Assembly: GCA_016930485.1 (NCBI GenBank)
Contig: JAFGGP010000030.1
Coordinates: 2,745 to 66,744, forward strand
Direction of reading: 5' to 3'
Source of the DNA: Candidatus Omnitrophota bacterium
Lineage (GTDB): Bacteria; Omnitrophota; Gorgyraeia; JAFGGP01
Length of the DNA stretch: 64,000 nucleotides
Below, piece by piece: positions 736 to 24,700 of this stretch. Each line of letters starts with the position of its first letter. Position 1 is the stretch's first letter. The position numbers and the translations under genes are program-made. The notes under the pieces are model-generated. The model was not told the DNA's origin and did not search any database. It saw only the letters and a list, made by a program, of their open reading frames with translations.

Positions 736-3700
736 GTTAGGCACCTCGCGCAGGCTGCGCGGCCTCAGGTTTTTTAACTCCGCTAAAATCATCCTGCCGA
801 TTTTCCATTGTTTTTTGTCTTTTTGTGACGGTCCTGAAAGGCGCGCGTTTTCTGTATCGGATACCCGGGAATGTGTTTTATCCCGCTGAGTGGCTACCCC
901 GAGAGACCAAAATAACCTTCTGGCAATAAGCCGAAACCGTTCTGCGGCATTCCTTAATGGGGAACGTCCGAACACAAACTCCCCTGTTATACCCTCCAGC
1001 TTAAGGAGCTGCTGGAAAGCCCCTTTTGCCCGGGGTGTTTTCGGCAGATGTGCCCTGTTTAAAAAGACAATATTGCCTGCCTTAACCAGCACTTGACTGC
1101 TGTCCGTGAAATCGGCTATGAGTAATCGACTGTACAAGTTTTTAGGCACAAACTCTGTGTATTCCTCAAAAGGCAAGGAATAAGAAGGAAGAGCCGCATA
1201 GAGAAGCGGGTGTATGCGTTTTGCCTGATTCTCAAGAACCTTGTTAAGGGCGGGATAATCAGGGAGATATATTACATCAGGATCAAATGACCGTTCGTTG
1301 AATTGGCTCTGAAGGTAGAGTACTAAATTATCCTCGTCTTTCAAAGACGCGTTCTTTTCCTGAAGATGATGAATAAGCGGAGTCAACGCATTAACAAGTC
1401 TGATATTATCAGGATACTCAAAAACCGCATCAATTACTGTCTTTACGGCCGCTACTGTTTTGGCATCGACTTCTATCGCACCCCATGAAACAGGTATGGA
1501 CGTAGTTACCGGCAAGCTTACCACAAGTACTGCCGGTACATTATCCACGTCTAATTCAGTTATATCGTCAGGTGTTGTTACGCCTTTAACGGTCAGAAAA
1601 GTTTGTGGTATCGCCCCGGGTGAAAGTGGAGTATTAGAATAATAAATGGAGATGCCGTTTATCCGAACATGCTCAAGCTTGCTGAGATCATTGACTAATT
1701 CATTATTCAGCATAATCTTGCCATCAGGGCAAAACCGCATTCTTTCTTTTACTATCTCGCTTCCGTGCTTTTTATTGATGGAAGACCGGACGCGAACCTG
1801 CGTTCCCGACCGTGATACATTCTGTGCGTGTGGCTCGATCGCCAGACCGAAAGAACCGTTGGTACGTTTAAAAACTAATTTGTATTCTTTGCCTTGGGAA
1901 GCAGTTATTACGGTAATGGTGTCGTCCTTTTTGTTCACAAACTGCAGCCCCGAATAAAAACCCATGCCAAACCGTCCGAAAGTCGCTGCACCCTCCTTGT
2001 CTGTCATAGTCGGGATTAGAAGATTGATGAGCACTTCTTTCAGGGTCATGCCTTTTGCCTGATCAGTTACTACAATATTCCTATTGTCAATCTGCACATC
2101 TATCTGATCAGACTGCCCCGGCACCAGTTTATCTATGCTATTTTCAACAAACTGGGGAATAGCATCGTATTTATCGCGTGTCTGGAAGGTTTTTATATTA
2201 TCAACCAGATCGCGCCAGTAATTACGCTGGCCCGGGGCCTGATTTAAAATCGGCGTAAGGTCCTCTCCGTTGTCAATGGCCTGCATGAGAGTATCGAGTT
2301 GCTGATCATTACTTGCCACAAGAAACGCGATCATATCACCGAGTGGTATAAACTCGGCAGCAGTAGATGGAGCAGCAATCTCATCATCCGTGAATTCCCC
2401 GGGCTGCTGCCGTGTCGAGCCAGTAAACGTCGCCATACCCAGCATGGGTGCTTCCCGCGGAAGGGCGGCAAAGAGATCTGTCAGGCTGGCGTGACTGCCG
2501 AAGATCAGCAGCGCGCACTCGGTCGCTGCCACCATAACAAGCGTTATAAGAAGGATGGTCAAAACCTTGTCTATCGGCTTAAGCGCGCGGAAGCGGGTCC
2601 AGGCCCATTTGAACGGGTTCGCGAAAAATTCCCGCCGGCTTGCCGCGCGGGCGGCGGCCCTCTCCTCAGCAACACGGTTTCTGTCTACGAGGGCGTACAG
2701 CTCTGCCTCGTTGGTCCAGCGCGGCTTCTTCCCCTTAATCTGTCTTGCCTCTTCAGTCGCCGGGGAAACTGTGTCTTTACCGGCCCCGGGCTCTCCCTTT
2801 AGACTTTTAACCCCCGAGGTTCCCGCATCAGCCACTTGACCACTAACCTCGGGGGTTATTGCCTTGGAGGTTGTTGTGGGCCCTTCCGCGCGCTCGGCTT
2901 TTATCTCGGCAAGTATCCGCTCCATCTCAGCAGCGACTCCTGAGGATACCTCTCTTTTGTGGCCAAGGCGAGCCTCCATCGTTTTTATAAAAGCGGCCTG
3001 CATTTCTCTGATATCCTGCATGGAATCCATCTGTTGGAAAAAGTCGTACATCATATCCACAAACTCATAGATCTGGATCTGGTTTATTTGAGCCGGCTCA
3101 TACAGCTTAAGTATCTCATGCATAGCGGTTTTCAAGACCTGCTCCCTGCCGTCCTCCAGTCCGTGCAGTCTTTTCTGCAGACCCTGCATAATTTCAGCGG
3201 TTGAATTACCAAACTGTTCAGGGTCGTCCAAAAACTCCAGAATAACAGGATGGCTAAATATGCTTCCCAGCGTTGTCCCGAAACCGCTGCCCGCTTCCCG
3301 CTCATCACCGGGCACCGCTTCCCATTCTTCTGTCGCATCACTTGGTTGGGCGGTATCGGTCGTCTCGCCTCTCGGCCGGCCGGTGATTTCATCCAACAGA
3401 CGGGAAGCGGCTTTTTCTATATCATCGGTTGTCGCCAGTCTGCCAAAGACAAAGCCCTTACCCTGTTTCTGCCATTCCAGCTCATACCGCAGGGCTTCAA
3501 GGTACGGGCTCTTCGGATCAAATATCCTGGAGACAACTTCTATGTATTTTTCCAGCTTCTGCTTAATCTGTATCCTCTCCAGAAGCGCCACCGTAAGACA
3601 GACATTTTCGCGGATAAGCACTGCCTGGTCCTCATACCCTGTCAGAGGCCCCATAAGCTGATTGGTCAGCGCAACAGTCGCAAGCACCAGAAGTTCATCC

Positions 3701-6700
3701 GCTGTCGCGTCCTCATCAAGCTGCTGCCGCAGGTGCTCAAACGCGCCGATCTGCAGGAGAAGCTGCGGATTTCCTACATTGTTAACCAGTATCTCGCTCA
3801 AGTCACGGTAGTTCGGGTCAAGCACTATATCTACCGTGGCATCAGGCATGACAGGGGTACGTCTTCCGAGCTGAGAAATAACGCCCTTTCGTTTGTCCAT
3901 GGCAAGATTAAGGTACTCGATAAACGCGTCGACAGAAAGGCGCATTCCTGCCATACGCATATTGCCGACTGCCGCGACAAGTCGCCGCAGGCCTGCATCC
4001 TGCAACTGCTCCGGCGTCACCTCAAGCCTGCCCCCGCGCAGCGTAATGCCGGGTATGGTAATCGGCGCGTCGCCTGTCTTGACCCACCCCTTCACCTGCC
4101 ACGCGGGCCCTGTCCGGCCAATGGAGCCGGCAATCAGCTCTGTCACTGCCCGGCCGGCCTCTTTCTCAGCCTGTGCTGACCGCGCCTGCTCCTCTTCCTG
4201 CGCATAATAATCAGCCCCTATCTTCTCAAGACCGGGCCGCAGTATTTCCGCTAAATATTCACCGGTCAGTTCCGGGATCTTCTCCGTGCCTTCGGGCGTA
4301 ACCCTGACTATCTCTTTCATCTCATCGCCGAGGTCATGCGCGCCGGGAAAGTCGCGTATCTGCGCAAGTTCGTGGGCAAGGCTCGCTGTAAACTGCGTAT
4401 GGTCGGCCTGGTATGCCGCGTAATCATCCTCACCGATTATGACCTGATTGGCGCCGGTAAGCACACACCCCTCTATCGGTACTCTGCGCGCCTGTGGTAC
4501 TCCATTGTCCAAAACCATATCCAGCCTCACCATCCACTCCTGTGGGACAACGATGATCTCTCGAGGCAGCGTCTCTGCCGGGCCAAAATCCCCTAACGCG
4601 TCGAGCACGTCCTGCGGCACCTCTCCATGCCGTATCCGGCCGGGCTCTCTCTCCATCCTTAGCTCTATAGCCGCCACATCCTCCTTTGTAACCTTCCGGT
4701 CCTCTGAGTAGTCCCGGTCAGGCGGGTAGAATAACTGGTCAAGAATATTCCTTATCCTCTTCGTTTTTTGCTCTCTAAAAAATTCGTAACCAAGATCCAT
4801 CGTATTCAGCCACCCCAGCATTTTTAGCATCTCCTCATACCGATACTGCTCTACCAGGGCCGGGACAGCGGGATTGAGGTATAATCGTCGAATCAGCTCG
4901 TCATCAAAAAGGTCTTCGTGTTCAAAAAGCACCTCCTCTATGCCTCTAATCAATTTCACAAAAGACTCTGGGGCAGCATCGCTGCGGTCCCAGTCAGCCT
5001 TGAGGGGTTCGATTCCGGCCAAGAACTTCCGTAACAGGTCTGAATCATATGAACGGCCGAGCTGGGTCAGAACGGCGGGGATCCCTTTATTGTCCCGTAT
5101 CTGGGCGCGGTAGTTTTGTTCTGAGGACAGGGGGCCGTTTTCTTGAAGCAGGACGTGCCATATGTGAGCCCCGGTGCTTTCCTTGCCTATCGCCCCAAAG
5201 AGGTGGGCCGTGGCCTCAAGCATGAGGTATTGCTTGTGGGCCGCCTTCATCTCCTCAGGCAAGATTTCTCCCCAGGCACGGAGAACCTCCCCTACACTGT
5301 ATTCGGCAAAAGCACCGGAAAAGTTCTTTTCCGCTGCTGCCAATACCATCCGGTGAACAAGAACGTCATTGGCCATACATTCCGGGATAAGCTCTTTGGA
5401 GAACCAGCCGCCGACACGCTCTTCTCTCCCTGCTCCATACGAACCCGCATATGGCCGCACCATAAATCGTCCTGAGTCGCCATTAAGCCCGATATATTCC
5501 TTTTGTAGCAGCTCGCCCTTCATAGACTTGAAATCATCCGTACCATCATCGGTCAGCTCATCGCGGTATGTTGGTTCATCAAAGCCCTGAGGGTGAAGAT
5601 GCATAACGGTTGAGAGAAAATATCTGCGGTTTGTGGGGTAGAGAGGAAGACGCGGGTTTACATTCGCTTCTAATAGACCCCAGAAGGTTCGCCAGTCTTG
5701 ATAATAATCTTTCTCTCCAACCTCCTTTCCCTGCACTATCAATAGCTTGCCAGCGGCATAGACAATACCAATCTCGCCCTCTTTGTGTTTGTCTTTAAAA
5801 CGCTCTATCTCCTGCCAGAATCTTACCGAAGGCACCGTAATGCCGTTAATCGTCTCGGTGCAACTCTCGAGGTCTACCGCAAATACTGAATCGGCGCCTG
5901 AGAGGCCGATTGCCTTCAGATTATCTAAGGGGAGGAAGGAAGAAAAACTCTTATCGGCGTCTTTCAGCCACTGTCCTTTCCACCATCCACTACTTGCCTC
6001 AGCTGCCATGAGAAGATACTCATTCCACTCGATTAAATCCTCTGCATAGAGGTAGCCGGAGGCGTGCTCTCTGTGCGAAAATATACTTTCTACCCGCTGC
6101 TCGATCGCCTTCTTTGCCTGCTCATCTGCCCGCTCATTCCGCCTGATCGACCCCACGCCGAACATGCCGAGGAGGGGCATGCTCCTATGAGCCCCCGCGT
6201 GAGCCAGTCGACTGCCAACTTCTGGGGTTGAACTCAGTGCAAGGATAATCAGCGCGGTGATTGCCGCCGCGCCCAAGGCGATGCCGGCAACGAGGAGTTT
6301 GTGGTCCCTGACAAAGGCGAGGAATCTCCTGAGGCCGCTCTGCCTGCTCCTCTCCGGCAACGCTAGCGTTTCCCTTTCCGTCACCCTGGCGCCGAGCCGC
6401 ATGACGATAGCGGTGTTATTGTCCGCATTAAGCTGAGAGGTGACCTGCTTTGCATTGTATTCAAACTTTACAATCTGCCTGAATGTTGTCTCGATTTTTT
6501 CTTTAGTCAAGCCGGTGCTGCGTGTGTCGCAGACCCCGTCTGTGGCAAGCAGGATAATGCTATGCGGGCCAAGCTCCACCTCGTCAATGGCAGGCTCCCG
6601 GCTTACTATATGCGCATATCTCCGGTCGCCGAGCGACCTTGTCAGCTGAATCCGCCTTCCTGTACGCACATTCCTGATAAACAGATTGTCGTCTGTGAGC

Positions 6701-9700
6701 ACAACACCTTGAGCCTTAAGACTCTCTATTTCCTCTTTACTTAAAAACCGCGCATTGTGTACAGGGCCTATGTTAACCTCACCGTTCTTATCCCGTATAA
6801 CTGCGGCAGAATCGCCTATGACGCCTCTATAGGCCTTGAGTTCATCGCTCGGCACATAGATAATAGTCAGGGTGGAGCCAGAGCGTTTTTTGCTGACCAG
6901 GCGCCCAAGCTCCTTAAAGGTACGCTCTAAGGCCTTGTGCACATCCCCGGTTTCGTCTTCAAGACAGGTACTGAATATGTAGGCCGCCTTTTTGGAGAGC
7001 AGGCGGGCAGTTCCCCTGCCCCCATGGCCGTCCATTACCGCCATGAACATGCCCTCGCCATGGTGAATGTCCGGCACGCTGACAGGCGTGGTTATGAAAA
7101 AGTCTTCCTGTGTTTCTCTGAAGCCCCGCATGGTGTGCGAGGTGACTGTTGCCGAAACCTCCTGGCCGTCTTTCGGTTTGATGGTGAACTCCCGAAGCGG
7201 GCCGGACGCCTCCTTTGCACCGGCCTGCCACATCCTCCACGCGACAAATATAACTATACCCAGTGTCAGCCCCGCGCCCAAAAGCACCAGCCTCCCCTCA
7301 GGACCCAGCGCGTCCAGCAACCGCCCGATCATCGTCATCATCGGCATCATAACCAGCCCGGCAAGGTTGATGTTCATGCCGGATGTGCTGCTTGCGGCTT
7401 GCACCGTGGCCATCACTTTATCTGTTGGTTGATTATCTGTCTTTCTAGGCATCAAAACCAATCCAGAAGCTGTGGCGGGCGCACTAACCGTTTGAATAAA
7501 TTCACCCACGCTCGGATCATATGCTTGAGATAAAAACAATCTTTCATCCAAGATAACATTCGCTACAGCACTATTGGCCTGAATGCGAACCTGCTCAATA
7601 TCTTTGCGTTCCAGGGCAAGCATGGCAAGTTGCAGATTATCTTCTTCGTAGGGAACAATCCATCGTAATGTATCGGCCGATACCGGCACACCATATTCCT
7701 GCGCTTTACTGAATACTTGCCGTAGAAAAGAGCCAAGTTCTCTGGACGGTACCATAATAAAAGCATTTGCCTCGGTAAGCGGGAGCCCCTCTGTTGCCAA
7801 AACCTCTCCTGGCCAAATCATTATCTGACCTTGTGAAGTACCGGCGGCGAACCTTTCAATAAACCACGGATCTCGCCCTGTAGCAACCACTCCCTCGGCT
7901 CTCCATTTTCTGACCGCATTCCGGGAACCGGCTTCCACACCAGGCTGCCAGCTAAGCGTCATTGATTGTTTATAGTCAAAATCTGACGATTTTTCTCGCG
8001 CCCATTGCCAGGCTTTTTCATACCCCAATTCCATGATTTTACGCCTTATATGTTCAGTGGCTTGAACAGACCATAAAGAATTATCAAATACGGTAACGCT
8101 GTAATCAGCCTTCAATCTTTCAATGTCGTCCATAGCAATGAAGATGCCGAACTCCCCTTCTTCTCTAGGTTTGTGCATCCTAAAATAACTAAATCCCTCT
8201 TTATATCCTTCAGAAAAGCGGGGATGATAATAATGATATGCATTAGGAATATTGCCGTACAATCGTTCAACAGCACCGATCTGAAAAGAGATATCTTCTT
8301 CTATGCCACCGCTTTTTCTCGCTATTCCCCTCTTTAAAACCCGTTCACCTGCTAATTTTCCTAAAAGACCGCTTAGAACAATATCCGCAAGATATTCAGG
8401 CTGCGTAGCGTGGGTAGCGAATATCTGATTAGGCTCGAGTGTAGTGGGAATTGAGTGTATAATGCGTTCCTCTTCGGTGAGCGGTCCGCGCAGAAATCCT
8501 GTTATTTCTTCAAGCATTGCCGTTATCAGAACACTGTCATATAGGGATCTGACACGCTGTAATCCGTCAAGACCATCTTTATTATTCCGGACTATATCTG
8601 ATAAAAGCGTATCGAGATCATCCTTGGATATGCCCTTACCCACCGCAAGAAATTCTGAAAGTGCCCGGTCGTAGTGAGGCACAATAGTTACAAGTGTTTT
8701 CTTTATATCAAATCCCACCCTCATGTGCTTCGCTATACCGGTAATATACTCGTCCGCATGGTGAGGCAGAATTGCACCTTTTTCTTGTAACGCGTCTTTA
8801 ATAAGGGCTAGCAATTTACCTTCGGCCTCCCTGTCTTCTTTAAGATGCCGCACAAAAGATTTCAAGTCTTCCCGGTATAGTTCCATAGCATTTCTTATTT
8901 TTATCAGCCGCCTACCGGCAGGAAATTGTTTGAGCTTCCCTTCAAGCCCTTCCGGTATTTCCGCGCCGGTACCCGAGAGCGATGAAATATCTTGCGTCAA
9001 CTGCTCTAATTCCACCGCGTGATTGTCAAGCCAATACCAGTCCTCAGGAACAGGAAATCCTAACCGTTTTATTTCTTCCAAAATTTCCTCTATCTCGGTA
9101 TATACGCTGCTCTGCAGAAACTCCTGAAATAATCTGTCAGCAGTAGGTTGTCTCTGTATAGTCTCCTCTATCCTCCTCCCCCTCCGCAGCACCAGCACCA
9201 CAGCAACCGTCGCACCCACCACCGCCATCACCACACCCAGTATCATAAAAAGCGTGCTGGCGTCCATGTGCAGCCGTCCAAAGAGCCACGGCAGCGCGTT
9301 GAGCGGGAGGGCAAAACCAAACATGCCCCCGCCATGCACCCGGCCGCGGCCATGCTTGCCGCCATGCCTGCCGCCGCGCCTTTCATCCGGCCGTTGTGCC
9401 GTGCGACGGTGCGCGCCCGGGACAAAATCGCGAATCTGGTTAAACGCGGTAAACGCCTTGCCCTTTTCAATACCCTTATTATGAATTGCTGTTTCTATCT
9501 GCCGCAGTAAATCAGAAATGCTCTCGTTCTGCATCATGCCAAAAGCAATTGTGTTCCCTATCATCTCCTGGTCCTGAGGATTGGTAACAAGCCGCGAAAA
9601 CGCCTTATCGCAAAATAGTGTCCAGAGGCGATCTGAGTAGTACGGGGTACCCCGCTGCACACCCGCCATATCAGCAGGGGTAAGATGTGTTATAACTTCA

Positions 9701-12700
9701 TCAAGAATCTTTTCAAGCCCGCTATGTTGTCCCCGTCTTTCAGTCAAATTGACAAACATGCGTCGCATAAGCTCCTCCCGCGTCTCTACCTGCGGATCGG
9801 CGAGAATGGCGGAAAGTTGACTATCGCTGAGCCCAAAGCTATAGCCGGTCTTTTGCATGCGCGCGGCCGCCGCCCTGTATATATCGGCCGGGCCGTTCGG
9901 AAACTGCTGCGGATGGGCAAACAACCGGCTGCGGGTTGGCTCATCAAGAAAATTATCGCTATTCAGGAATGGTTTTTCTCCGTGCAGCCAGTCATCGGCT
10001 ATCATGCCGGGTACGTCCGCAAGCAGGGCCGCAAAAACCGCCTCCTCGTCTTCGGCATCCTTGGGTATCTCATGCTCCTCAAGAACCATATCAATCACTC
10101 CCTCTACTACCGCTTTGGGATAAATCAACGCATAGGGGGCGTGTTGTTTCAGGTGATCATAAAGCCCGCCTCTGATTATCCGCTGGCAGGCTTGGGCAGC
10201 CTCGGTCTTCGGCCGGCTAAAAAGTAGGATTCCGGCAAGTGCTATGGCACTTTGCTCTTCACGAAAAAGCTGGGGAAACCGTTCAACATAGGTAGTGTCA
10301 GAGTAATCGCCCTTACCCAGGTCATGAAAATGACTCTGCAATTTCTTGAGTACTGCCTCGGCGTCAACCGGGTGTTCGCTCTTAATAGCGTACAAAGCAG
10401 GGGCATGAATAAACCATTCCTGGCCGCAGAGCCACGCGTAGAGGACTTTCGCGTTGTCTAATTCCATCTCGGAAAGTATCTCAGTAGCCGCGATCAGCGC
10501 GTCCGGGGCGTGTACTACCAGGGGCGTACCGGGTTTCCGGTTTTTCGGCATGTTGCTATTCATTTCATCGGCCTGGGCCAGAATATATTTTCGATAGGTT
10601 GGATACATCTCTTCATCCGGTCTTTCGAGCAGGTCTGCCAGGGCACATCCAATTGCCTGTTCAGCCGGCGTACCGAAAAACAGTAGTGAACCGGTAAGTA
10701 TCATAAATGACTCCCAGGGCCGGCTGGCGCTTTCAGTAAGCCACGTACCGAATTCTTTGGGTAGGGTTGCGGTAATAAGGGCCGGGTTTCCCTTGGCATG
10801 TTTAATAGCCGGGGCAAGAAGTATACCGAATTCTGTGTCACCCTGTCCTATGAGTACCCCATACTGCACAATCCAGCCTAGAGGAAGCTTCTGTTCTATC
10901 GCACGTTTCATTGCTCCGGATGCCAAATGCCCTACCCTGGCTGCCTCTGCTTCCTCCTTCGCTGCAAGAGCAGCGCGACGGCATCGTATCAGGCCCTCGG
11001 CAAGCTTGAGCGAACCGTACGGGGAATTGCCAAAGAGTCCGTCTGCTTTTTCAAGCAGCAGTTTCCCCTGAAGCAAACGGTTCGTCTGATCGTCAATCAC
11101 TGCTCCTGTCTGCACCCGACCATCTTTTTCAACAGCGGCAAACAACACCTTCGCCTTACCCAGCTGCGCCTCTGCCATGTGTGGGTGTGACTTGAGCAGT
11201 TCATCATAGATCGCCTCTGCCTCGCTAACCTTCCCCTGCCGCATATAGAGATCAGCCAGGTTTATCTTGAACCACGCTACATAAAGGAGGATCTCGAGAT
11301 CACCGGCGTCTCGCTCAATTTGAACAATCATGTCTTCAAGTGTCTTGACCGCTGCGTCAGGCCGGTGCGCCATAGTCTGGTAGAGCGCCTCGGCAAGGCG
11401 ATAGTCAGGCCCTTTAAGAATGTCGAAAGATTCGCCGAGTTCGAGGATGCGACCGGCGGTCTCGGCATCACCTCGTATCAGATGTACCCGGGCAATAATT
11501 CCCAGCCGGTCCATCAGGAATGAGTCATCGAGCCCGGCAGAACCGTCCTCAATCACTGAGCGGCGCTTCTCAATAACCTTAAGTAGTTCGTCGGTCCGTG
11601 CCTGACCGCCGAAGGCAAGCCCGCTCTCTTGATCCTTCTCCGCTATCCTGTAGTAAAGTGCCAGCTCCGCACACCGCAGGGCCTCACTCAAATTGCCGAT
11701 TTCAAGATAGTAGGCACTGGCATAGCCATACATAAATGAAAACTGGCTGTATATCTGCTGTTTGCGCACCAGTGAAATGCCGGTTTCAATATATTTTTTC
11801 TCGGTTATCTCGGCAAGGAGTGAACGATCGCCGGTGGCAAGAAACTGGTCCCATAACACAGCGGCCAATTTTACTGCTGACAATCCTTTAATGCCGGGTA
11901 TGCTGCACTTCTGTGATTCTCTGAGTGCGGCACGGGCTTCAGCATAGTTGCCGAGCGGGAATAAGGCTGAACCATGGAGAAAGTGGGCATAGAATTTCTT
12001 GTCCTGATCAAACTCCTGTGTTGCGGCATCGGCTGCGGCCTCGGCCGAGGTCTCAAAATCATGCCTTATCAGGTAATGTTGTGACCGCCATATCTGAACC
12101 ATGCCACGGTTTCTGCTCTGGAGCCGGTTATTTGCGGGTGTTTCTGCATTAGGGTATACCTCAGTTGTCCGTTCAGTATCCCTAAGAAGATCGTCAAGGG
12201 CCGCCTGAATCACATTCTCAATTTGTTCAGGCTCTTTACCAGGAAATGTATCGAGAGTAGCCGTTATCATCTGCATCTGGTGCTCGAATATGCTTTCTAT
12301 GTTATCCCGGAAACCTAGGTACTCCCGATCACTCGGCTGGGAGGCTACAAAATGCCATTGCGCTTTCAGGGCTATGCCGTATTGCAGCACAGCCTCTCTG
12401 ATTTGCCGGACACTGTTTTCACCCCCAGGGTGCTCCAGGGCGCTCTGTGTTAATAAGCGGGCCGAGTTAGGGCGGGGGCCAATGGTAAAAAACGGTCTTT
12501 CAGGCACAGGGAGTGTATCGGCATATTCTATAACCATACCGTACGCTGCAAGCGCCTCATCATATCGTCCAAGGTTTTCCAGTGTCATGGCGCGCCAGTT
12601 ATTGAGACGCGCAATCTGCGCCGGGCTTCCGGTCTGTTCGGCCATTTTTAGAAGAAGCGGATTATCAAGAAGGGACCATGTCTTTGGAAAATCCTTGGCT

Positions 12701-15700
12701 GCAAAGGCATCGCTCACCTTCTGCATTTCCGTGTTAAATTGTTGTGTCGCTGCATCATCGCCACCCGGCACACTGCCTATGCTGCCGGTAAAGGCAATCG
12801 GCATAAACGGCACGGCCTCAAGCATCCGCGGCACCCCGGTGAAAAGATCGAGGCCCCCACCAACCCCCGGGGCCTTTAGCGCGGCCAGGTGCGTTTCAAC
12901 CCCGCTGGCCGGTGCCGCGCCGAACGGGTTGAGGTCTACGCCAAGGAGGTAGAGCGCGATAAGGGTAATGCCCACGGTAACGGTTATGCCGATCAGGGCC
13001 GCCTTCTGCCGCCCTGAGAGTGTCGGCCACCGGCGGACGATAGACCTGCCCACCAGGAAGACCGCAGTCCCTACAAAAAGCCACGGCAGTGCCGAGGCTA
13101 TAGCACCGACTACCCCGGCAAGACCGCTTGAAAAGATCCGCGGCAGAAGATTTGCCGAGAGCAGAAAAACGGTAGACCCGAGCCCTCCGCCATGCACCCG
13201 GCCGCGGCCACCCCGGGCCGCCGGCGCTCTCACGTCCGCAGTCGCCTTCGTCATACCGGCGGTCGGCGCCCTTGGGCCCCACATCATCATCGCCCCCATC
13301 TGGAGTCTCTCGTTAAAACTCCTGGCCGCAAACGCCCCGTGGACCCACAGCATGGAGTCACCGCCCGGGTCAATAACCAGTGCGTCGGTCACCTTTAGTT
13401 CATCCCGTAAAAATGCGGCCATCTGCCTGAGGGTCCCGCCCATGCGGTTTGACTTGCCCTTGAATATAATCTCGAGGATCTTCCCGTCATCGCGCCTGGC
13501 AAGGATATGATGCGGATGGATGCCGGGATACAGAATAACCCTGACCTTGCCTCTGGCCTCGTCAATAGCAAAGTCTCCTTCCTTAGTTACCTCATCCCAC
13601 CCCCTGGGCCTGTACTCCTGCCCGCGTACGATGCCCTGACGCTGAAACCATCCGGTCAGATCCGCGGCATTCGGTACAACCGTTACGATCTCCCCGTCAA
13701 CCACCTTGTTATACCGCATATCAAGCTCGACCGGTTCCCCCTGCGCGACTTTGTCGAACAGTTCCCCATTCAGCGTGGTCGGGTCAACGTAACACTGGTC
13801 CACCCCGAAATGCGACAGGGAGTCGGGTACGAACGGAAAATCCGCAATCCACCTCACGTCATAGTAGAGATCCAGCACATCTGTTATCGGCACTATGCTG
13901 CCGGTATCCTCTCCGGGTTTTCTGAAGATAAGCGGCGGTGAGGTAAGGAACTCCTGGACCGTCCCGGTGATATCCTCTCCGGTGTCCGCGTCGTAAATCT
14001 CCCGGTACCGGTTGATGGTAATCCTCCTGAACCCCTGCGTACCCTCTACACCTTTAACAAACGCATAGTAGACAAACTCGCCATCAAACCGTTGCTCCTC
14101 ACCGGTTACATGAAACCATCCCTTATCCTTGATATAGCCGACAACGCCCGGGTTGGCAAAGAGCGTGCCCGCGCCGGTAATGACCTCGGGGGCTACTTTG
14201 TGCTCCGCCATAAAGGACCTGGCATGTTCGGAGAGTGTCATCATGTCCTTGCGCATGGTAGTAGCGGGATCCGTGTCCCAGCCTACCTCGCCATCGGAAC
14301 TCACATATCTGCCTATGCCGGTATTCCGCAGCATGCCTGAGCCGAGATTGCGGGATTCCTGGACGCTGAGATAAAACTCAAGCTCTGATGGATCTATTTC
14401 TTTAATAATCACCTGGGTAGAACCGCCGCGCTCACTCTCAAACGGCAGCATAGTGTATCTCTGCGACAGGTCCGCATCTCCGGTCAGAAGGCCAAACGTC
14501 ACCCCGCCTGCCTGCGACCGGTCTTTTGCCTCGCCCCCGGTCCGTATCCCCACTACAACCGGCCCGGTAAGAGCAAGTTCATTGATGGCACCCAGATACC
14601 GCTGGAGCGCCTCCTCCGAGGGCGGACCGTAGTCACCGACAGGATTGAGCGGCAACGCCTTGATGTGGATATGGTTGGTATAGCCTTCTTCATGGGCCAC
14701 TTTATGGATAATCGTGGCAAGACGCCGTGCCTGTTCGGGCGTGTCATTGATCCCCTCTATCAGTGGCACCCGTACATCAAGACGCGACCTGTTGTGAATC
14801 GCCCTGTCATAGGCGATTGCGGCCTTGACGATTTCGGCAACCGTAGACATCGGTTGCTTCCTGTCGATCAGTGCGTTCCTGGTATCCTCATCTCCGGACA
14901 GAATAGAAAGGTCGAGCATCGGGGCACGCAGAGTACCGGTGAAGCCCTTCTTTACAACCGCTTTCTGCAGTTCCCCGATCTTTTCGGCGTCTACCCCCAC
15001 GGTCTGAATCCGGCACTTTGAGATGACCTTATCCTTCTCCAATTTGTAAACGGCGTCTACTATCTCATTGATATTATTCAGCGGTTCGCCTATCCCCATA
15101 CAGCTCAGCTGTAAATTTTCCCCGGTGCCGTACTCTTCCAGAATGTTATCCCTGACAAACTGAAGTCCGAGCGTCACCTGATCCCTTAATTCCTCCGCGT
15201 TGAGACTGTGGGCAATTAACCTATCCTCATGGGTAGCCTTTCCTGTTGCGCAGTAAAGGCACCCCTCATGACACCCCGTATCGGTCGATATGCTTATGGA
15301 ATGGAGTCCGCGTCTGAGTACCGCCACTGTTTCAATAGTCAGATTCTTGAATCGTTTGAGTTTAAACTCCATTCTGATCACGCGGCTCTCCAGGTCGGCG
15401 TCAACCTTCATAAGGGTAAGGGCGTTGCTTGTGTAGCTCTCCGGCTCTACCGTCTCGCCAAATACAGAAGGATTCTCCGCTCTGATGCCGGCATATTTGA
15501 TATATCCCGTCTCGTTTATAAGGATGCGCTGCGTTGTGTCGGGAGCGACGTAATATATCCGGTATCCCCTGCCGTATATCTTCGCGTCTCTATCAAGCTC
15601 GATAAGCCTGCCCCACTCCGCGGTCTTCCACTGCGTGAATAACAACTCCTCTGCCCGTGCCGCGCCAAGGGGCTGACCGGGATCGTTGTTAATGCTCTCA

Positions 15701-18700
15701 ATTAATTCACTCCCCGGAAGATCAGGGGGCGCCGGTGTGAAATCGGGCTGAAGTCCGTCGTCTACGTGGCTGTCCTCGATGCTGCCTACCCCGCCCGGCA
15801 GCACAACGACACCGAAGCGGAGGAACCTGGGGAGAACTCTTGATAGGTTAACGTCGTGCGTCAGCAACATGAAAACCGTAAATGTCAGCAGTATGGCACC
15901 CAGCGCAATGCCGGCGATGATTGTGGTCTTCTTCCATCTCGGCAGGTCGCGGAAGCGGGCGAGGAGGCTTTTCTTCTGAAAAGCCGGCACCTCTCTCAGG
16001 CTGTGCCCCTTAAGTTGTGCAAAGATCCTTAGGAATTGTGCGCCACCCTTCTGGAATTCAAGCGTCTTAGAGTGCAGGGGTCGCCTGGCAAACTTATCAA
16101 GGTGTGTGGCAGCGCCAAATAAGATAGGGATGGTAACAACATTTTCCTCTGGAATAATCTCCTCTATCTCCTCTTCGGTAACATCCTCATGCGTGTCATT
16201 GGGTGCATCACCCAGTAATGCATAGGCGGTGCACTGACGGGGCGTAAGCGGTGTCTCAAATGCTCCTTTCTCTTTAAAAAACTCTAAGGCTCGTAGGGCG
16301 GTTGAATGCTTATCTGCTACACTTATGTCAACAGCAGTGCTGCTGTATACCCGACAGAGGCTGTCCGGTATATCATTCTGGATTGATGCAAGAATTACAG
16401 CAAGGAGTACTGTCAGATCTGTCTGATTGTTTTTGGCAGCTGCCGCTGGTGTAACGGCCTTTTTGAGATGCTCACTGGACTTGAGCAGATCCAGGGTAAG
16501 TTGCCCTTTATCCGCGGGTAACTTGATAAAGAGGTCGCCTAAAATCTCGTGCGCCTGCGGGTCTACGGCAAAGTAGTCATGCTCGTCACCGCGTTCTTGC
16601 TTCTGCCACTTACTACGCAATGACACGTCTTTCCACCGATCGATATCGCTATCGGTAATCTGTTGGTCTGATGCGATGCTCAGCGCTTCTCTATATTGTT
16701 TAAGTTCGTCAAAAAATGCCTCTTTATACCGTCTGGATAGCTTTTTAATGTTTTTGCTATCAATGTGTCCGGGGGGCCACGCTTTGTCTTTTTGATAATC
16801 GTTATCCTTATTAAAGTAGAAGGCGCCGTTACCACTGTTGAAGGCTACCAGAAGTTTGCCAAGGAGATATTCTTTATTGGTTGCCTTTAGAATAGGCTTA
16901 ATAACATCGATAACATACTCTTCTATTACCTTTTCAGTCTCACCGGTAAGGATGATAAAGAGGTCAACCTCCTCGAGTGCCTTAAGAAAGGCGTCCAGAC
17001 ACTCTCCCTCCAGTATTTTTTCACCAACAGTATTGAAGTAATCTGCAATAACTATGCTGCGGCCCACTTGTTCTTTGGGGAGTCTGAACCAGGAAGGAAC
17101 GGTGAGATCCATGGTGAGATGCCCTAACCATATCATAAACGCATCAGCGGCCGCATTATAGTCAGCATAGATTATCGCAGGCTCACCCTGCCCCTCACCT
17201 ACCGGCTGTCCTTTCATCCTTTCAGCACTCACAAACAGCACTCCGGCAATGCCGATTTTCTTGGCTGCGCCGATATCCGTTTCGAGAGAATCTCCAATCA
17301 CAACGCACTGATCTTTCGGAATTTTCTTTTTTCTAATCACTTCTTCCATGATTTCGTCTTTCCCGACAAATGTTCCCTTATTATCTACCTGCTGGGAATG
17401 TATCTCACTGAAGCAATTATTGATACCCAGTGCCTCTGTCTCAGCGGTCAATCGATCGTAACCTGCAGCACTCGCAATAACCAGCTCAACCCCTTCAATT
17501 TGACTTAGTGCGTGAATTCTCTCAATGGCCCCGGGCAGTACCGGCGGTATGCCGTGGTAGTCTCTTTCCAGAATGAATCTGTAATTGCGTGTGTAGATCT
17601 CGAGAAACCCCTCTTCGGTCAGTTCCCCAATAGAAATATTATAATCCTGAAATACACTCTGCATGTGTCGCATGCGTTCAAGGGGAGGCACTATATCTTC
17701 CCGTTCATGCCGCTCCATTTCTCTTACTATCGCCTCTCGCGTCTCCTGCGGGATGTCTTGTTGGCTTCTCTTAAAGAACTCGGCACACATATATTTCCAT
17801 GCCGCGATACAAAGTGATTGAGTGTCAACTATTGTGTTATCCCAGTCTATGAAAATCAGCCGCGCTGGTTTTGACATATCGCGCGCCTCGCGTTGTACAA
17901 AACCGGGCTGCGGTGCGCTGATTGCTTGAGGCCGGCTCGGCAGGACGCTGCCTGCGTTTTTCTGACTGATTTCCTCGTTGATGAGTCGCATCACCTGCGC
18001 CTGTTTTGAGCGGCTCACATCTGTAAAGGTTTGGCGAAATAGCATATAGCTTACATGATGCTGCAGGGCCGCCAGCCTTTCTTGTTCAATGGCGGTTGCA
18101 GACTGTGCCTCTGCCGCATAATCCGTAAGCCACGACTGGATAGCCACGCGAATCTTCACATTGTCGTTCCGTCCCTTGGCAGGTCTAATCCATATCATCA
18201 GTTTCGTTGCCGTTGTTGAGATAATAATCGCGACCGTAAGCGGCAGTATAATCATCGCAAGGGCAAGGCCTCTTATAACCCGTGGGGTGCGGGGCAGGCT
18301 AAATACCTTTATATCCGCGGTATGAGGATTTTTATTATCGTTGAGTTGGCCATCCGGAGTTATAATCTGCACCCTGCCAAGGCGCGTCGGCACATAACGG
18401 GTAAAGAGGCCGTCATAGAGGGCTTTGAATAGGGGCTTTAATCCGCCAGAGCCACTTTCTAATAATTTTGTTATGATATAGCGAAGTTCTCTGAATGTAC
18501 TCTCTGAATATCGCGTATACCATATAATCACATTTCTTACATTAAAATAGGTCCAAAAGGCTCCTCGTGAACCTCCGGTTGCCTGCATGCTTTTATGGTA
18601 GACAGCGATGCGCGGATTGAATAGCGTTTCGTAGTTAAACTCCCGGTAGCGGGTGGCGAGTTCTGGATCCTCGTCATACATGAAAAACCGGTTATCATAG

Positions 18701-21700
18701 TTCCCCAGAAGCAATAGAGTCCATGAGGGGAACGCCATAAAACTGGGGGCATGCGAAGCCTTGACTATTTCGCCTTTCTCTAATACCTGCAGCTCATCCT
18801 GCCCATCAGCCAGGTACATGGAAAATGTCTGATCGACCGGATAGGCCAATGCCTGCCCATGCTCATCGAACCGCGTGGAATACATATATCGGGCAGCACC
18901 CATCGTTGCCACACGGTCGGCATTGTTCTTGATGCCGTCAACCGTTGCCTGAAATGCGTTTCTATCAAAGGTAATGTCATTGTTAACGGCAATCACCAGG
19001 CCGGGATCAAGTTTATTCATGGCATGCTCAGTGCCCAGGTTATAGCCGCCTGCTGTGCCTCCATTGGTGATCCATTCATTAGTTTGTTGCTGTGCCTTGA
19101 CATTTGCCGGGTCCAGTTCGCCTTTTATAAACGTAATTTTGAGGCCTTCGGGCTTGTCTTTGGTGAAGATATCTGGCCCTTCATAGATAGCTGATTCTTT
19201 GTTTCCGTACCGGTCAAAGAAGTTGTCAGGGGAATTATTATCCACGATAATAAGGTCGATTTTATCCATCGGATAATCTATGTTATAGAGCGAGCGCACC
19301 AGATCCAGCGTGTCTTTTTCACCTACACCGCCCTCTTTGCCCCAGTGCAATACTACAAGGCTTATTCGCGGATAGTCCTCTTTAAGGAATGCCTTTTTTC
19401 TTTCTTCAACACTGTTTTGGGAAAGCCACATAAGGTTATTGAGCCAGTTCTTCCTGCCGTTATAGTCGCGCCTGTCGAGCCAGCCGATGCGCCGAGTGAG
19501 TATTGTGCGTGCGCTGGGATTTCTCGTCTCTGCCTGATCAAGGAGGGCCTGCACCCGCGGGTCTTTCAGCGGCTTAGGAGCAAAGGCAAGGGCGTGGATG
19601 TCCTGTTCTGTTAATACAGGCTGCTGAGATAAGTCCCTGTCGCGGCTCTTTATCATCCCTTTCCCCACAATTATCATCGGCGCGGCGTGTTTGAGGGTGT
19701 CCAGAGCCGCACCGTGGGTCACAGTAGCACCCATGGTTGGGGACAGGCCTTCGCCAATTCCCGGAACCAACTCAGGAGCCTCGGGCATTATTGCCGGCGC
19801 GCCCTCGGTAAGAAGCGGGGTTTCAACTCCGGGAGTTAACATGACCTCGGGGGTTGCGATGGGCGCGTTCGACCAGAAGTCTATTGCTTTTAGCCACGGC
19901 ACGTCGGTAGTGAAAATCAGGACAAGACATGCCACTGCTACGGCACCCAGCGCAATGCCGGTGATGATGAGCGCCTTTTTCCTGGGTGACAAGCGGGCGA
20001 GGGGAGAACGGGGTATAATAGTCGCTGTCTTCGCCTGCATAAAGATATCTATTTGATTCGCGATCACCTCTTCTGTCTGGCTATACGTATTACCGCGCGT
20101 TGCATTGGCCGCGCTTACCAGGTAGCCTTCGAAAATGCGTTCAAGTGCGGTGATTAGTTCTGCTTTTTCCTCCTGTGTCTTTGCATGTTCATAGGCATCG
20201 AGAAAAGCAAATGTTACAGCACCCCAATCCGCTGCGGTAATGGAAACTGAGTCTTTGTCAAGCCCCGTCTGTCCTGAGAGTCTCTTATAGATATCTTCGG
20301 GTAAGAGGCTCTGGTATATTTCCGAAAACTGCCCCATGCCCTCTGCAAATCCCTGATAGAGTTCGTCGGTGTTAAGTCTCTCGGTCTTATTCGGTAACGC
20401 CCCGTTTTGCTTCTGCCATGTCTCGGCATTGAAGGTATCGGCAAACGGCTCTTCTTTTGGCTGCACCGTGGCAATGTTCTGCCAGTATTTTTTCTCTGAT
20501 AAGAGGATATCAAACAAGTTTGAGACGGTAGCGATAAACCGTTCGCGTATGGGATGTGGCATCGGGAGATGAATCTTCCTTCCTATAAACACATTGGCAA
20601 CCTTCGCGTCAGGATTGCGCAAAGACCGTGCTCCCATCCACTGATCCTGTCCTATAATAGAATTCCACATAGTCCAGTTCTTTCTGAAATTTCTGGTTTG
20701 TTGCGGATGAAATCCCCAGTCACCGCCACCCAGTTCGCGTAAATGCCTGCCGTATACAGCGCTAAACAGCGGATAGTAGAGCCAATCGGTTATTATCCCG
20801 TCCGCATCCTGTGTGTAATTTCGCCAGTATTCGGGTGACACCACATCATAGCCCGCGAGCTGAGGCGCGATATATGCCTTGACCCAGTCCTCGGTTATAC
20901 TTTCAAGGTCGCCGTCAACAAAGGCAATAGCATCGGCATCTAACTCACCGCCCAGGTCACAGATAGACCGCACACCCCACCCTTTTCCTTTAACCGGCAG
21001 TGTCAGGGTAAAACGATGGATGCCCTCTGTTTCAGGGACCGCTTCGGCAATCCGGGCAACTTCCTGTGAGACGGAACCCGGTCCGCCCGATGGAATAATA
21101 ACAATATTCGCCTCAGGGTAGTATTTTTTCGCGCCTTCTTCGAGGGTCTTAATTACCTTGGGAACTGTATCTTTTTCATTAAAGAAATTCACACCCAATA
21201 CAATAACAGGCTGATTTTCTTTGAAATGCTGTTTCAGCTGGCGCGCCTTCTTTTTCCACGGCTTCATGTTGTGTTGGTACCTCAGATATGTCTTGAGGTT
21301 TTTGAAATTCGCCTTCGGAACGGTTCTTGTTATCTCGCTGCGCTCGCCGGTGACACTGCCGGTTAATCCGGGAATCACAAGGGTGCCGGCCACGGCAGGT
21401 AAGGTATGTTGAACGGCCGGTGTCTGCTGGAACACCTGACCAGCGCCTCTAAGGGCCTCAGGCATGGTCTGCTTCATAGCATCGATCCCTGAGGCCCCGA
21501 ACTCAGCCGCTTTAACTCCCAATTCCGGGGTTGTAGTTTTTAGAACCTCGGGGGCAAGCGTGGTAAGTTGCTTTGCCGCATTCGGCCAGAAGTCAATGAC
21601 CGGCATGTCAAACCAGTAGCCAAGGGCAATGTATATAGCAGCAAGTATGCCAACCGCGGCAAGTGCAATGAATGCCTTTTGACGGGTTGGCAGCGCATGG

Positions 21701-24700
21701 AAGCGGGCGAAGAGGGATTTTTGTGAAGGCTGTTTCTGGAATCTGTCAATCCTATCCAGCCGCCGGCCGCGGATGCGGTTAACGAGCCTGAGATACTGCC
21801 CGCCACCCTTCTCAATACCAATACTGGAGTGTGCCGGGGTGTTTGTAAATTTATCCAGATTGTGCTCAGGGCCCAGAAAGATGGGGGCTACCGCGACAGG
21901 TCCTGTGATCAGCTTTTTGAAATCCTTTGCGCGCAATTCAAGATGCAGGTCATTGGGCGCGTCTCCCATAAGCGAGACCAGGGTACAGCCGCCGCGGCGG
22001 GGCTTTTTCTTGAGGGTAGAGTCGAACAATGTCAGGGCACGAAGGGCGCTCGACTGTTTATCCTCCATACACACATCAACCGCCTCACTGCTAAAGACCA
22101 CGTGTCTTGCCTCTGTCTCTCGGACATCCCCCCTGATTGAACCGGTAATCGCGCCTAAGAGAGGCGTTATGTCAACCTCTCCCTTTTTGAGAGTAGCCTC
22201 AGGGGTAATGGCATCCGTAAAGTTTTTGCTTAGTTCATCAAGTGACATGATGAGAGTCAGCTGTCCGCCGTCTTCTGAAAGCCGCACCGCGATATCCCCT
22301 AAAAACCCGAGGGCATCAGGAGGGAGAAAGTGATCAAGTCGTGACGCCTTGGTTGTCTGGGTAAATTCTTTGCTCGTTTCAGCTGCTGAAACTGTCCGCC
22401 ATGTGTCAGGTTTATCAGGGTCGCATGTCTTTTCCAGGGCATACGCTTGCCACGTATTTATCTGTTCATCGGTTATCCTGAGCTTGTCCTTATATGTCCT
22501 GATCTGCTCAAAAAACCGGGTTTTAAGCTTCTCGCTGAGTGACATCACGGTCTCGGACGGTATTATCTCAGGCGGCCACGCATCCTGCATCTCATAACTA
22601 TCATCAGGAAACCAGAATGCCCCATTGCCTGAGTTATAGACAACCACGAGTTTTCTGAGGAGATGGAGCTTGTTCTGCTTTTGTAGTTCGGGCTTGATTA
22701 TGTCTATAAGATCGACGACCTTTGAGTCTTTTGTGTCTCCGGTCAGAACGACTACCACATCCTGTGTCTCAAGCGCCTCAATCAAGTCATCCCGCTCTTC
22801 TTCGCTCAGTTCGTACACTCCGAGGGTATGGCGGTAATCCGCTATCGTCACCTGCCGGTCGACTCTTTTATGCGGCAGCTTCATGCCCTTGGGCAAGGTG
22901 AGGGTGATGTCGGGTAGGTTGGCGAGCCAACTCTCTTTTTCTTTGCTGGTAATACCCTGTTTCTGGTGGCGCAGGTTGGCAACGATACTGGTGAGTTTTT
23001 TATTGGTGCCGTCTACTGTTTCGTTTAAGAGTGTGCGCAGGGCATTGACCGAGGCAAGGGTCTCTATTTTTCCATCGTGGGCATTCTTTTCTATAAAGGA
23101 GAAGGTTTCCTGCACTACCTCAGGACTGTCTTTACCCCTCAGGATATTCTGGAATTTGTCATTGCCGTTTACAAAGATATCGATGGTATTAAACGTATTA
23201 AAGAGGAGTTTCATGTCTTCGATAGAGATAGAAATGCCCAGGGCTTCCTGACCTTTTTCGGCTTCCTTCAGGAAATCCTTATACTGGCGCATGGGGTGGT
23301 AGCGGAGAAAAAGTCTGAGCTCGGGGGAAAGCTCGATGCCCTTTGCCTCGGCTACTTCAACCGCGTGCTCACCGGGTGAGAACGCGTGGAGCAGGTAGTG
23401 GCGTTCTTGCTCTGAAAGAATCTCGCCAAAGACCTCCCGGTTCTTTGCATCGCTAAAGGCCCATTCTTTAAATTCTTCATATGAGGTAAAGTCGCTTGAG
23501 CGCTCGCGCACATCAAATTTTTCCTTGGTAATCTCGTTGAACCGGGCGGTTGCCTTACGGGCCTCCTCGCTATCCGGGTTCTGTGCTGCCTTGCGGCTCA
23601 TCAGTATCGGGAAGCCGATCTCGTGGAGGATGATCATCCGGTGGCCAAAGCCTCTGACCCTTTCATCCATATTCATCCGGTCGGCCATTTCATCAAAGAG
23701 CCCGGTTGCCTCTGCGGCATGATACTTTCCCGGGCCTTCGTTATATAAAGCAAGGGTTTTTTTGTCTGAGAGCCCTGCAGGGTCGATTGTTTTCTTTTTC
23801 GCGGTCTTAATACTCCCTGTCATCCCCGGCAGTATCAGCGTGCCGGCGCCGATGTCAAAGAGCCGGTGGCTGTCGGCAAGTACTTTAGCGGCGTCTGCCT
23901 GGGTAAAGCCGGACGCGGTGATGCGGAGGGCGCCTTCGTTGGACAGGATAAACTGCTCACCGCCCGGCCCCTGGAAAAGGGCGAGCTTTCCCTCGATATC
24001 GCCTGAAAGATGCGAGAACCAGTCAGGGTTCACCTCGATGTGCTGGGCGTTCGCGTAGGCAATCGCAAAGGCCAGAAGGGCAAGGGCACACAGGGCCCCG
24101 ATCCATACATACTTCCTCCCCCGCACGCGCGCCCGCTTGATGTTATCTTCTGAGTTTGCACTTAAGAGACGGCGCAGCGACCCCGGCACCCAGTTAAGAA
24201 GCAGCTGGTGCGGCAGGGGCGCGACACCGCGCAGGAGGTCGTGGTAGCGCTCGGTATCCACGTCCTCCTTTGAGACCGGCGAGACAACGGCATAGGACAT
24301 ATGTTTTTCTCTGAGGAGTTCGGCGATACCGCGGGTGTGAAATCCGCCGGCAATTAACACATAGACAGGGGTTCGCGGGTGCTCGGGTTCGCGGGTGCTC
24401 GGGTTTTGTTGATCTTTGAACCCGCTCACTTGCGAACTCGCTAACTCGTCAATCTGTTTAAGTGTGTTGTTGACCATCACCGCGTCGCGCTTATGGACCG
24501 TGTCGTAAAAGGCCTGAAAGGCGCCGAGCCGCGCGTCGAGGAGCGCCGGGTCATACTGTACCTTTGTCTTTATCATATAGGGGCGGCGCCGGGGCTCGAT
24601 GAAACTCCGGAAGCGCTCGACAGAGATCTCACTTTTGTGCCCCTCAAACCACGCGAATTCATCGCGCGATATCTTGAGGTCAACGAACCTTGTTAAAAAC

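Follow-up and report, generated by a model that had tools for sequence, protein, structure and literature searches.

On which side of the membrane do the enzymes of a giant protein lie when the chain meets a predicted transmembrane (TM) helix about once every 1,000 residues? The question is raised by a 64,000-nucleotide stretch of a Candidatus Omnitrophota genome (contig JAFGGP010000030.1; hereafter the window, meaning the whole stretch analyzed), in which a single open frame occupies the minus strand from position 26892 to position 1. From its first ATG, at 26844, this giant open reading frame (ORF; 1–26844, minus strand) encodes a multi-enzyme protein of at least 8,948 amino acids (aa), a lower bound set by the frame leaving the window at its left end. 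The protein includes GT2-like, HAD, radical SAM, NAGPA, TPR, PP2C, and GHKL modules. The original prediction, made from the letters of this stretch, had drawn attention to a short motif, hydrophobic-P/x-G-x-(T/V/I)-G-S-(I/V/T), downstream of seven of the TM anchors, and had proposed that TM and motif might together form a hairpin that keeps every enzyme on one side. A cleavage site and a docking motif were its other suggestions. Our analysis places the motif at the end of a recurring cassette, which is most likely either a membrane staple that leaves all of the enzymes in the cytoplasm or a mark at which the chain is cut. Papers on Omnitrophota giant proteins leave both the sidedness of the enzymes and the cutting of the chain open.

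The motif and its membrane-linker cassette

The recurrence of the motif is real and far beyond chance. Its core, (T/V/I)-G-S-(I/V/T), has nine matches at eight distinct sites where 1.1 ± 1.1 are expected, and none of 500 whole-protein shuffles reaches nine; enrichment over shuffled sequence, which the original prediction had set as one of its tests, is borne out. Six of the eight sites lie no more than 100 aa past a TM end, a zone that makes up 11.6% of the protein (binomial P = 5e-5). Across the six canonical copies the distance from TM end to core is 21–81 aa, which corrects the 30–90 aa first proposed. When the 100 aa after each TM were shuffled within their own composition, a match arose by chance in 0.5%–2.7% of cases for each segment, compared with six of ten segments observed, and not one of 20,000 shuffles reached four. 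In a control set of ORFs from 80 unrelated loci (933,171 aa), the core is twelvefold rarer (0.83 per 10,000 aa versus 10 here), and a motif-like element follows 1 of 925 TM-like segments. A leave-one-out position-specific scoring matrix (PSSM) returned the motifs of cassettes 1, 2, 5, and 10 (m1, m2, m5, and m10) as the best non-training match in 8,964 aa; m7 and m11 were not recovered. Two core matches, at aa 1583 and aa 4330, have no TM association. The first was set aside as a chance resemblance inside a folded module, the paralogous module having A-S-I at the aligned position.

An alignment of the seven units (A2) runs end to end, from ∼20 residues before the TM through the residues past the motif, and its conserved blocks are the pre-TM segment with the TM, and the motif. 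On this sequence evidence, the motif is the conserved C-terminal block of a membrane-linker cassette of 79–138 aa, present in seven copies in one protein. The cassette begins with a K/R-rich juxtamembrane stretch (consensus S..(A)RF.aLP...KK), which is helical in AlphaFold models, and continues into a TM helix of 22–24 residues that contains AGIALGA or TGIALGA in three copies. There follows a K/R-poor, P/A/G/T-rich spacer of 13–74 aa (that of m3 included), which cannot be aligned between copies. P, H, A, G, and T are enriched 1.3- to 1.8-fold in the spacers and K, R, and I are depleted; the earlier description of a low-complexity stretch of P, E, T, A, and G therefore holds for four of these residues, to which H is added, and fails for E, which is not enriched. 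The spacer leads to an uncharged run of 11–15 residues and finally to (P)G-x-(T/V/I)-G-S-(I/V/T), with basic residues often next.

All seven motif peptides quoted in the original prediction are present in the minus-strand frame; their end positions had been given exactly, their start positions 6–12 nt short of the peptides. Cassette 1 has a basic pre-TM flank (aa 913–927, six K/R) and TM1 (aa 928–950; flank and TM at 24043–24156, minus strand, as are all features of the giant ORF below). Its motif, m1, is AGTLILPGMTGSI (aa 1016–1028; 23809–23847, quoted peptide 23809–23850), followed by KTAKKK. Cassette 2 comprises KSLFARFHALPTRQK and TM2 (aa 1740–1761; 21610–21720), with m2, AGTLVIPGLTGSV, at aa 1835–1847 (21352–21390, quoted peptide 21352–21393). 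In cassette 3, the flank ends in PLARLSPRKK and TM3 has GIALGA inside (aa 2307–2329; 19906–20019). Its motif m3, APMIIVGKGMI (aa 2404–2414; 19651–19683), followed by KSRDRD, is degenerate, as had been flagged: it has no G-S and aligns with the other motifs. Cassette 5, KSLLARFRDLPRWKK with TM5 (aa 3656–3679, GIALGA inside; 15856–15972), has its motif m5, FGVVVLPGGVGSI, only 13 aa past the TM (aa 3693–3705; 15778–15816, quoted peptide 15778–15819), with acidic residues next. Cassette 7, RSIVRRWPTLSGRQK with TM7 (aa 4631–4652; 12937–13047), ends in m7, VPFMPIAFTGSIGSV (aa 4694–4708; 12769–12813), which holds two overlapping core matches. Cassette 10, QSGLRRFLAFVRDHK with TM10 (aa 6866–6888, GIALGA inside; 6229–6342), ends in m10, SMPLLGMFGVGSI (aa 6904–6916; 6145–6183), followed by RRNER, and cassette 11, KWAWTRFRALKPIDK with TM11 (aa 8110–8131; 2500–2610), ends in m11, APMLGMATFTGST (aa 8148–8160; 2413–2451).

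The cassettes are homologous to one another. In BLAST, cassette 1 matches cassette 2 (E = 1e-4). The protein also contains two paralogous HAD-IIB-like modules of ∼420 aa (aa 1322–1759 and 3255–3679; ∼38% identity), and the match between them extends over TM2 and TM5, so that cassettes 2 and 5 are paralogous together with the module upstream. The identical residues of m1 and m2 are mostly encoded by different codons, the motif Ser is AGT or AGC in m1, m2, m5, and m7 and TCG in m10 and m11, and synonymous sites between cassette copies are saturated. These codon differences mean that the conservation is old and lies at the protein level: selection acts on the protein sequence of the cassette. The modules that come after the motifs, by comparison, are mutually unrelated. 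The GT domain starts ∼48 aa past m2, and free-standing glycosyltransferase (GT) homologs have no such segment; set against these homologs, the motif belongs to the upstream TM and linker and not to the next domain.

Orientation of the cassettes and topology of the chain

The charge around the cassette TMs is asymmetric. In all seven, the 15 residues before the TM contain 4–6 K+R and the C-terminal flank 0–3, an N-in charge bias. K+R content is 33% in the pre-TM stretches and 6.4% in the spacers, against 11.4% protein-wide, and the flank behind the motif is basic in 4–5 of the seven copies. We scored models of the topology by flank charge, following the positive-inside rule. Single-span alternation with the N terminus inside (Alt-1) scores −25 and breaks the rule at 8 of 12 helices, with radical SAM, PP2C, and GHKL inside. 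With the N terminus outside (Alt-2), the score is +25 and violations fall to 3 of 12, and radical SAM, a GT2-like module, PP2C, and GHKL come to lie outside; the paralogous HAD-IIB-like modules are then on opposite sides, and TM2 and TM10 run contrary to their own charges. The paradox of sidedness noted in the original prediction is therefore a real one, each form of alternation offending either the charge rule or the expected place of the radical SAM and GHKL modules. When the 11 TM units are labeled by type in their order along the chain, the result is A A A B A B A B B A A, and its three A-to-A steps and one B-to-B step are not explicable by single-span alternation. A staple topology, in which each unit crosses twice, scores +48 with three small violations in 20, and all modules are inside.

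We therefore favor, tentatively, a model in which each cassette is a staple that crosses the membrane twice, the motif being its return limb and its exit hinge on the cytoplasmic side, and all modules are cytoplasmic. The TM would insert N-in/C-out and begin translocation of the spacer; the short hydrophobic stretch, aided by the basic residues behind it, would stop translocation and return the chain to the cytoplasmic side, where the Gly-Ser turn would serve as an exit hinge at the interface. Each cassette would in this way cross an even number of times, leaving the GT, HAD, radical SAM, PP2C, and GHKL modules all in the cytoplasm on a chain anchored in the membrane at intervals of about 1,000 residues. 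Between TM1 and TM2, TM2 and TM3, TM5 and TM6, and TM7 and TM8, the motif ranks first or second in hydrophobicity among 19-mers, and these intervals have no other canonical TM. It has been found that 10–13 hydrophobic residues are able to span a bilayer, and the uncharged run of the motif, at 11–15 residues, lies at the lower experimental length limit for spanning segments (PMC4796907).

Three mirror-image units would act likewise with the order reversed: basic, Gly-rich, short hydrophobic limb, short loop, long TM, basic. Each has a 17-residue hydrophobic segment, a loop of 2–11 residues, a long TM, and then basic residues, such that both outer flanks are basic. Unit 6 (13048–13209) consists of GRGRVHGGG, a short hydrophobic segment h1 (aa 4570–4586), a long hydrophobic segment h2 (aa 4589–4615), and RSIVRR. 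Unit 8 (9187–9351) has GRGRVHGGG, h1 (aa 5856–5872), a 7-aa loop, TM8 (aa 5880–5902), and RRGRR, and unit 9 (7237–7374) has h1 (aa 6507–6523), an 11-aa loop, and TM9 (aa 6535–6552). The remaining anchor, TM4 (18193–18285), has no G-S motif. It is a run of 31 hydrophobic residues (aa 2870–2900) with a central Pro and 4 and 5 K/R in its flanks, looks more like a candidate re-entrant or monotopic anchor than a single span, and may do as the staples do in the form of one kinked 31-residue segment.

The 9-mer GRGRVHGGG occurs exactly twice (13183–13209 and 9325–9351, minus strand; aa 4562–4570 and 5848–5856), each time directly before the short hydrophobic segment. In form it is a basic leader with Gly at its end and a hydrophobic stretch behind it, prepilin-like except that +5 is not Glu; it may punctuate the chain in a second way.

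The hairpin first proposed gains support from the end-to-end homology of the cassettes, the N-in bias of all seven, the K/R-poor spacers, and the three mirror-image units. A number of observations nevertheless weigh against a return crossing. The motif is too weakly hydrophobic for an autonomous TM: summed translocon-scale values are +6.6 to +15 kcal/mol over its 19-mers and +2.7 to +4.7 over its 12-mers, whereas those of the cassette TMs are −1.7 to −3.2. It is rich in G, P, T, and S, with a central Pro in three copies. AlphaFold2 predictions for cassettes 10 and 5, made from a seven-sequence alignment, give confident helices for the pre-TM stretch and the TM, and a helix in the spacer too; the motif is coil with pLDDT below 50, although an alignment of seven rows is so shallow that the coil cannot be taken as a negative. 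In m5 and m7 the residues that come next are acidic, not basic, and the m5 spacer holds three Arg; post-motif K+R is just 15%, compared with 33% before the TM. The invariant Ser is not obviously needed by a hinge, and the mirror-image units have no G-S motif. No orthologous giant ORF was present in the collections searched. Finally, the N-terminal hydrophobic segment of the protein looks like a cleavable signal peptide, in which case the first 880 aa would be outside. Recurrence, homology of the cassettes, charge asymmetry, and selection on the protein are established by the sequence; that the chain crosses the membrane at the motif, and what G-S does there, we infer.

Cleavage and other explanations for the motif

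The most serious alternative, although less probable than the staple, is that the motif is a processing site and the giant ORF a cellular polyprotein cut at (T/V/I)-G-S-(I/V), either between G and S or between S and I/V. Each module would be freed with its own C-terminal TM anchor and tail and would insert N-in independently, so that the topology paradox disappears without any second crossing. The invariant part of the motif, two small residues and then an aliphatic one, at module boundaries beside membrane anchors, has the form of many protease sites, and its Ser is kept across a switch of codon family (AGY versus TCG), which suggests that the residue itself matters. The mirror-image units, plausible true hairpins, are without the motif, as would be expected if only single-span anchors needed cutting. 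Both papers on Omnitrophota giant proteins raise cleavage as a possibility and describe C39 and S8 peptidase domains in many giants. Here the search for a peptidase domain, C39 included, drew a blank over the visible 8,948 aa and the neighboring genes, a weak objection since the giant ORF extends past the window.

How such a site might be recognized is less easily reconciled with the cassette. The −3/−1 rule of signal peptidase holds in six of the seven copies (T/V/I at −3, S at −1), with P or G at −4 to −6 in five of six. However, a signal peptidase I site lies on the trans face behind an N-in hydrophobic core, whereas the hydrophobic run of the motif is just 5–8 residues long and, if it spans at all, enters from the trans side. 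The K/R found directly behind the site in m1, m3, and m10, moreover, cannot be squared with export by Sec and a subsequent cut at the outer face. Such a cut would also leave the next module outside and so bring the paradox back. After a cytoplasmic cut, for its part, the pieces would have to be inserted post-translationally while bearing as much as ∼85 aa of C-terminal tail, a great length for tail anchoring. Similarly, G-S fits positions −2/−1 of double-glycine leaders in six of seven copies, but the other positions of such leaders (hydrophobic −4, −7, and −12; E at −8) do not agree: −4 is G or S in m5, m7, and m10, and no copy has an acidic −8.

Nor does any curated model of a sorting or processing signal match. 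PEP-CTERM, GlyGly-CTERM, and the other exosortase and rhombosortase signal models of NCBIfam gave nothing at E ≤ 10 on the 10 linker units. PF00746 (Gram_pos_anchor) matched no cassette; its sole hit, below the cut-off at E = 0.23, fell on mirror-image unit 8. The LPXTG pentapeptide is absent from the motifs, with m1 (LPGMTG), m2 (IPGLTG), and m5 (LPGGVG) each having one residue extra and the other copies no LP. Autoproteolytic Gly-Ser modules (SEA, pyruvoyl enzymes, and Ntn/DmpA-type) had no Pfam or NCBIfam match on any cassette, and the motif region is predicted to be disordered.

A protein that shares the GT module lends cleavage some further support. P0085, a contig-spanning ORF of 3,517 aa (L081, positions 1–10552), has ∼10 TM segments and a recurrent motif of its own, (A/S)(L/I)GSN..(L)KD, in five copies, three of them 20–25 aa past a TM. 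This sequence likeness hints that G-S punctuation may be more general. In a broader, and to our minds improbable, version of cleavage, the giant protein would be a polyprotein with two scission marks at the membrane face, hydrophobic-(T/V/I)-G-S-(I/V) at the end of the TM-first cassettes and the prepilin-type GRGRVHGGG before the hydrophobic-first units. The cut, by a protease embedded in the membrane, would fall at the cytoplasmic face and free hairpin- or tail-anchored enzymes, and the (A/S)(L/I)GSN marks of P0085 would represent the same system in another lineage.

We think it similarly improbable that the motif is an outer-face element with no return crossing. In that case the TMs would be single spans, with the modules alternating between sides or the whole chain acting outside its producer, for example in a prey cell, and the motif would be a short trans-side docking strand, its target being a partner, the other copies, or the surface of the membrane. 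The polarity of the motif, too great for an autonomous TM, speaks for this, and Alt-2 agrees with the positive-inside rule at 9 of 12 helices without calling on a weak TM. NAGPA domains are usually extracytoplasmic, and here one shares a module with radical SAM. The giant protein and its relatives P0019, P0151, and P0152 all start with signal-peptide-like segments, and West-Roberts et al. predicted an extracellular location for most domains of giant proteins. Against this, the cassettes, although homologous, would have to enter the membrane in both directions, TM2 and TM10 contrary to the bias of their charges, with paralogous HAD-IIB-like modules on opposite sides of the membrane and radical SAM and the GHKL ATPase outside, and no partner domain was identified.

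Least probable of all, in our estimation, is a relic of duplication, in which the cassette spread within the gene and the motif is residual similarity, or a mere compositional need for a hydrophobic and then a flexible stretch, with no specific role for G-S. The cassettes are indeed paralogous, the loss of G-S from m3 has had no evident effect, m7 and m11 escape the leave-one-out PSSM, and no homolog found outside the giant protein carries the motif. Yet G-S-(I/V) keeps its place where the hydrophobic run ends, while the spacers have diverged past alignment and their lengths differ 5-fold. Saturated synonymous sites and the differing Ser codon family also speak against a relic, and the core arises in just 0.2%–1.8% of shuffles of each segment's own 20 residues.

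The remaining candidates can be dismissed: a DNA- or RNA-level repeat by the different codons of the copies; internal translation starts by poor Shine-Dalgarno spacing and the lack of Met in m2 and m5, although Met is frequent in the motif; and known sorting signals, the Ser motifs of carrier proteins, the glycine loops of Rossmann folds and methyltransferases, the rhomboid recognition pattern, and autoproteolytic Gly-Ser domains by order, spacing, or the lack of any model match.

The giant protein, its relatives, and known systems

Pfam places a GT2-like glycosyltransferase at aa ∼1900–2030 of the giant protein, a second, weak GT2 at aa ∼2610–2680, a HAD phosphatase at aa ∼3010–3215, radical SAM at aa ∼3870–4030, NAGPA at aa ∼4437–4521, TPR repeats at aa ∼4740–5250, PP2C at aa ∼6580–6810, and a GHKL ATPase at aa ∼8245–8345. 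Hydropathy adds an N-terminal signal-like segment, 11 internal TM units, and a polytopic cluster at the visible C-terminal end. With its many enzyme Pfams, signal-like N terminus, ∼1 TM per 1,000 residues, and C-terminal TM cluster, the ORF fits the “multi-enzyme” class of Omnitrophota giant proteins. Behind the N-terminal hydrophobic segment are ∼350 residues of P/E/T/A/S-rich low complexity (aa 45–400; 25700–26760), including a short tandem SQIPN(P/E)(K)SQI repeat. The two HAD-IIB-like modules (21616–22929 and 15856–17130) are each joined to their own cassette TM, and their motifs (IADY..T, LTG(D/E)T, and GDAPND) went unrecognized by Pfam. The module shared by NAGPA, a phosphodiester glycosidase, and radical SAM is free of TMs (13198–14595).

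Around the giant ORF lie chromosomal genes of an ordinary kind, with accA, an L,D-transpeptidase, and enolase among them. The best matches of accA are to Omnitrophota metagenome-assembled genomes (61%–65% identity), with other phyla close behind. No rRNA or tRNA genes lie in the window. GC content is 46%–57% over the giant ORF (1–26844) and 35%–47% over most of 32000–64000. In the 31257–44000 region, a YifB-like ORF ends at model position 351 of 499 and abuts a serine recombinase (32383–34113); the adjacent low-GC stretch (35%–41%) encodes a KaiC/CedD-like ATPase and a Xer-like recombinase (41531–42796). An integrated mobile element probably interrupts yifB here, and no remainder of the gene was found downstream. 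Further along, 54631–61892 holds a polysaccharide-type cluster with four GT2 genes, a Wzx-like flippase (Polysacc_synt), and a PMT_2 family glycosyltransferase.

In the collections searched, the cassette was found in no other protein, and there was no homologous giant ORF; the single-module homologs are without TMs and motif. The HAD-like module with cassette 2 gave no match as a query, nor did a profile of the seven cassettes even at E ≤ 0.1; a paralog profile (A1) run against GTDB genomes and JGI metagenomes gave pattern matches and no relative. An exhaustive phmmer search with aa 1322–2521 returned 689 hits, and in the best 150 of these the GT or the HAD-IIB-like module was matched alone, never with TM and motif. 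The matches listed are free-standing GT proteins of ∼400 aa or larger multi-domain proteins, at 23%–40% identity. Relatives of the N-terminal domain (P0151, P0152, P0153, P0154, and P0019) end or continue without TM1 and m1. P0151 and P0152 (∼700 aa) consist of a signal-like segment and the N-terminal domain only, while P0019 (3,487 aa) has more in common with the giant protein, namely the N-terminal domain (E = 2e-22) and the GT and a HAD module, joined without internal TMs. Since these relatives have no cassette, the cassettes would be lineage-specific additions, or retentions. The peptide RLFDIGAGTLIL in m1 (23809–23865; aa ∼1010–1028) resembles motif I of class I methyltransferases (VLDxGxGxG), and at the corresponding place in P0019, past the shared N-terminal domain, there is a real methyltransferase domain; the likeness in m1 could be chance or a relic.

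For this protein, the membrane elements prove to repeat one cassette, whose orientation is fixed and whose end mark is conserved, and this turns a vague problem of prediction into a specific, cheap test. If the staple is correct, it would account for the stringing of cofactor-dependent enzymes along a membrane on one polypeptide; if cleavage is correct, bacteria would have a cellular polyprotein strategy.

Among known systems, the multi-enzyme giants of Omnitrophota are the closest in overall plan. They are described as having ∼1 TM per 1,000 residues, with topology and processing unresolved (bioRxiv 10.1101/2023.11.21.568195; 10.64898/2026.06.07.730766), and resemble our protein in their N-terminal signal-like segment, TM frequency, and HAD, GHKL, radical SAM, and glycosyltransferase content. 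In contrast, searches of the two texts turned up no TM-associated motif, orientation analysis, or linker cassette (bioRxiv 10.1101/2023.11.21.568195; 10.64898/2026.06.07.730766), and the collections searched contain nothing closely related to the modules of the present protein. C-terminal sorting signals (LPXTG/sortase, PEP-CTERM, and GlyGly-CTERM) likewise combine a short motif, a TM helix, and a basic cluster, and m1 and m2 read (L/I)PGxTG. In the cassette, however, the order is reversed, with the TM before the motif, the units are internal, there is one residue more than in LPXTG, and no curated model matches at its cut-off. Polyproteins of the flavivirus type also have TM segments between enzyme modules and a short small-residue motif near each TM, and the −3/−1 pattern is present in six of seven copies here. 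Unlike these, the ORF is a cellular bacterial gene in which no protease module is seen, the motif lies 21–81 aa from the TM rather than at its end, basic residues are often next, and cleavage is only a candidate.

Insertion as a helical hairpin, of the M13 procoat type, is the precedent for the staple that we favor. Both have two hydrophobic segments, a K/R-poor translocated loop, and basic cis flanks, with a second limb that depends on its neighbor and on flanking charge. The second limb of the cassette differs in being 11–15 residues long, G/P/T/S-rich, and far above the usual insertion threshold, with loops of up to 74 aa, and it ends in a conserved G-S-(I/V), for which hairpins have no known need. 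The cassette also differs from such hairpins in recurring as a unit, seven times in one polypeptide, between enzyme modules.

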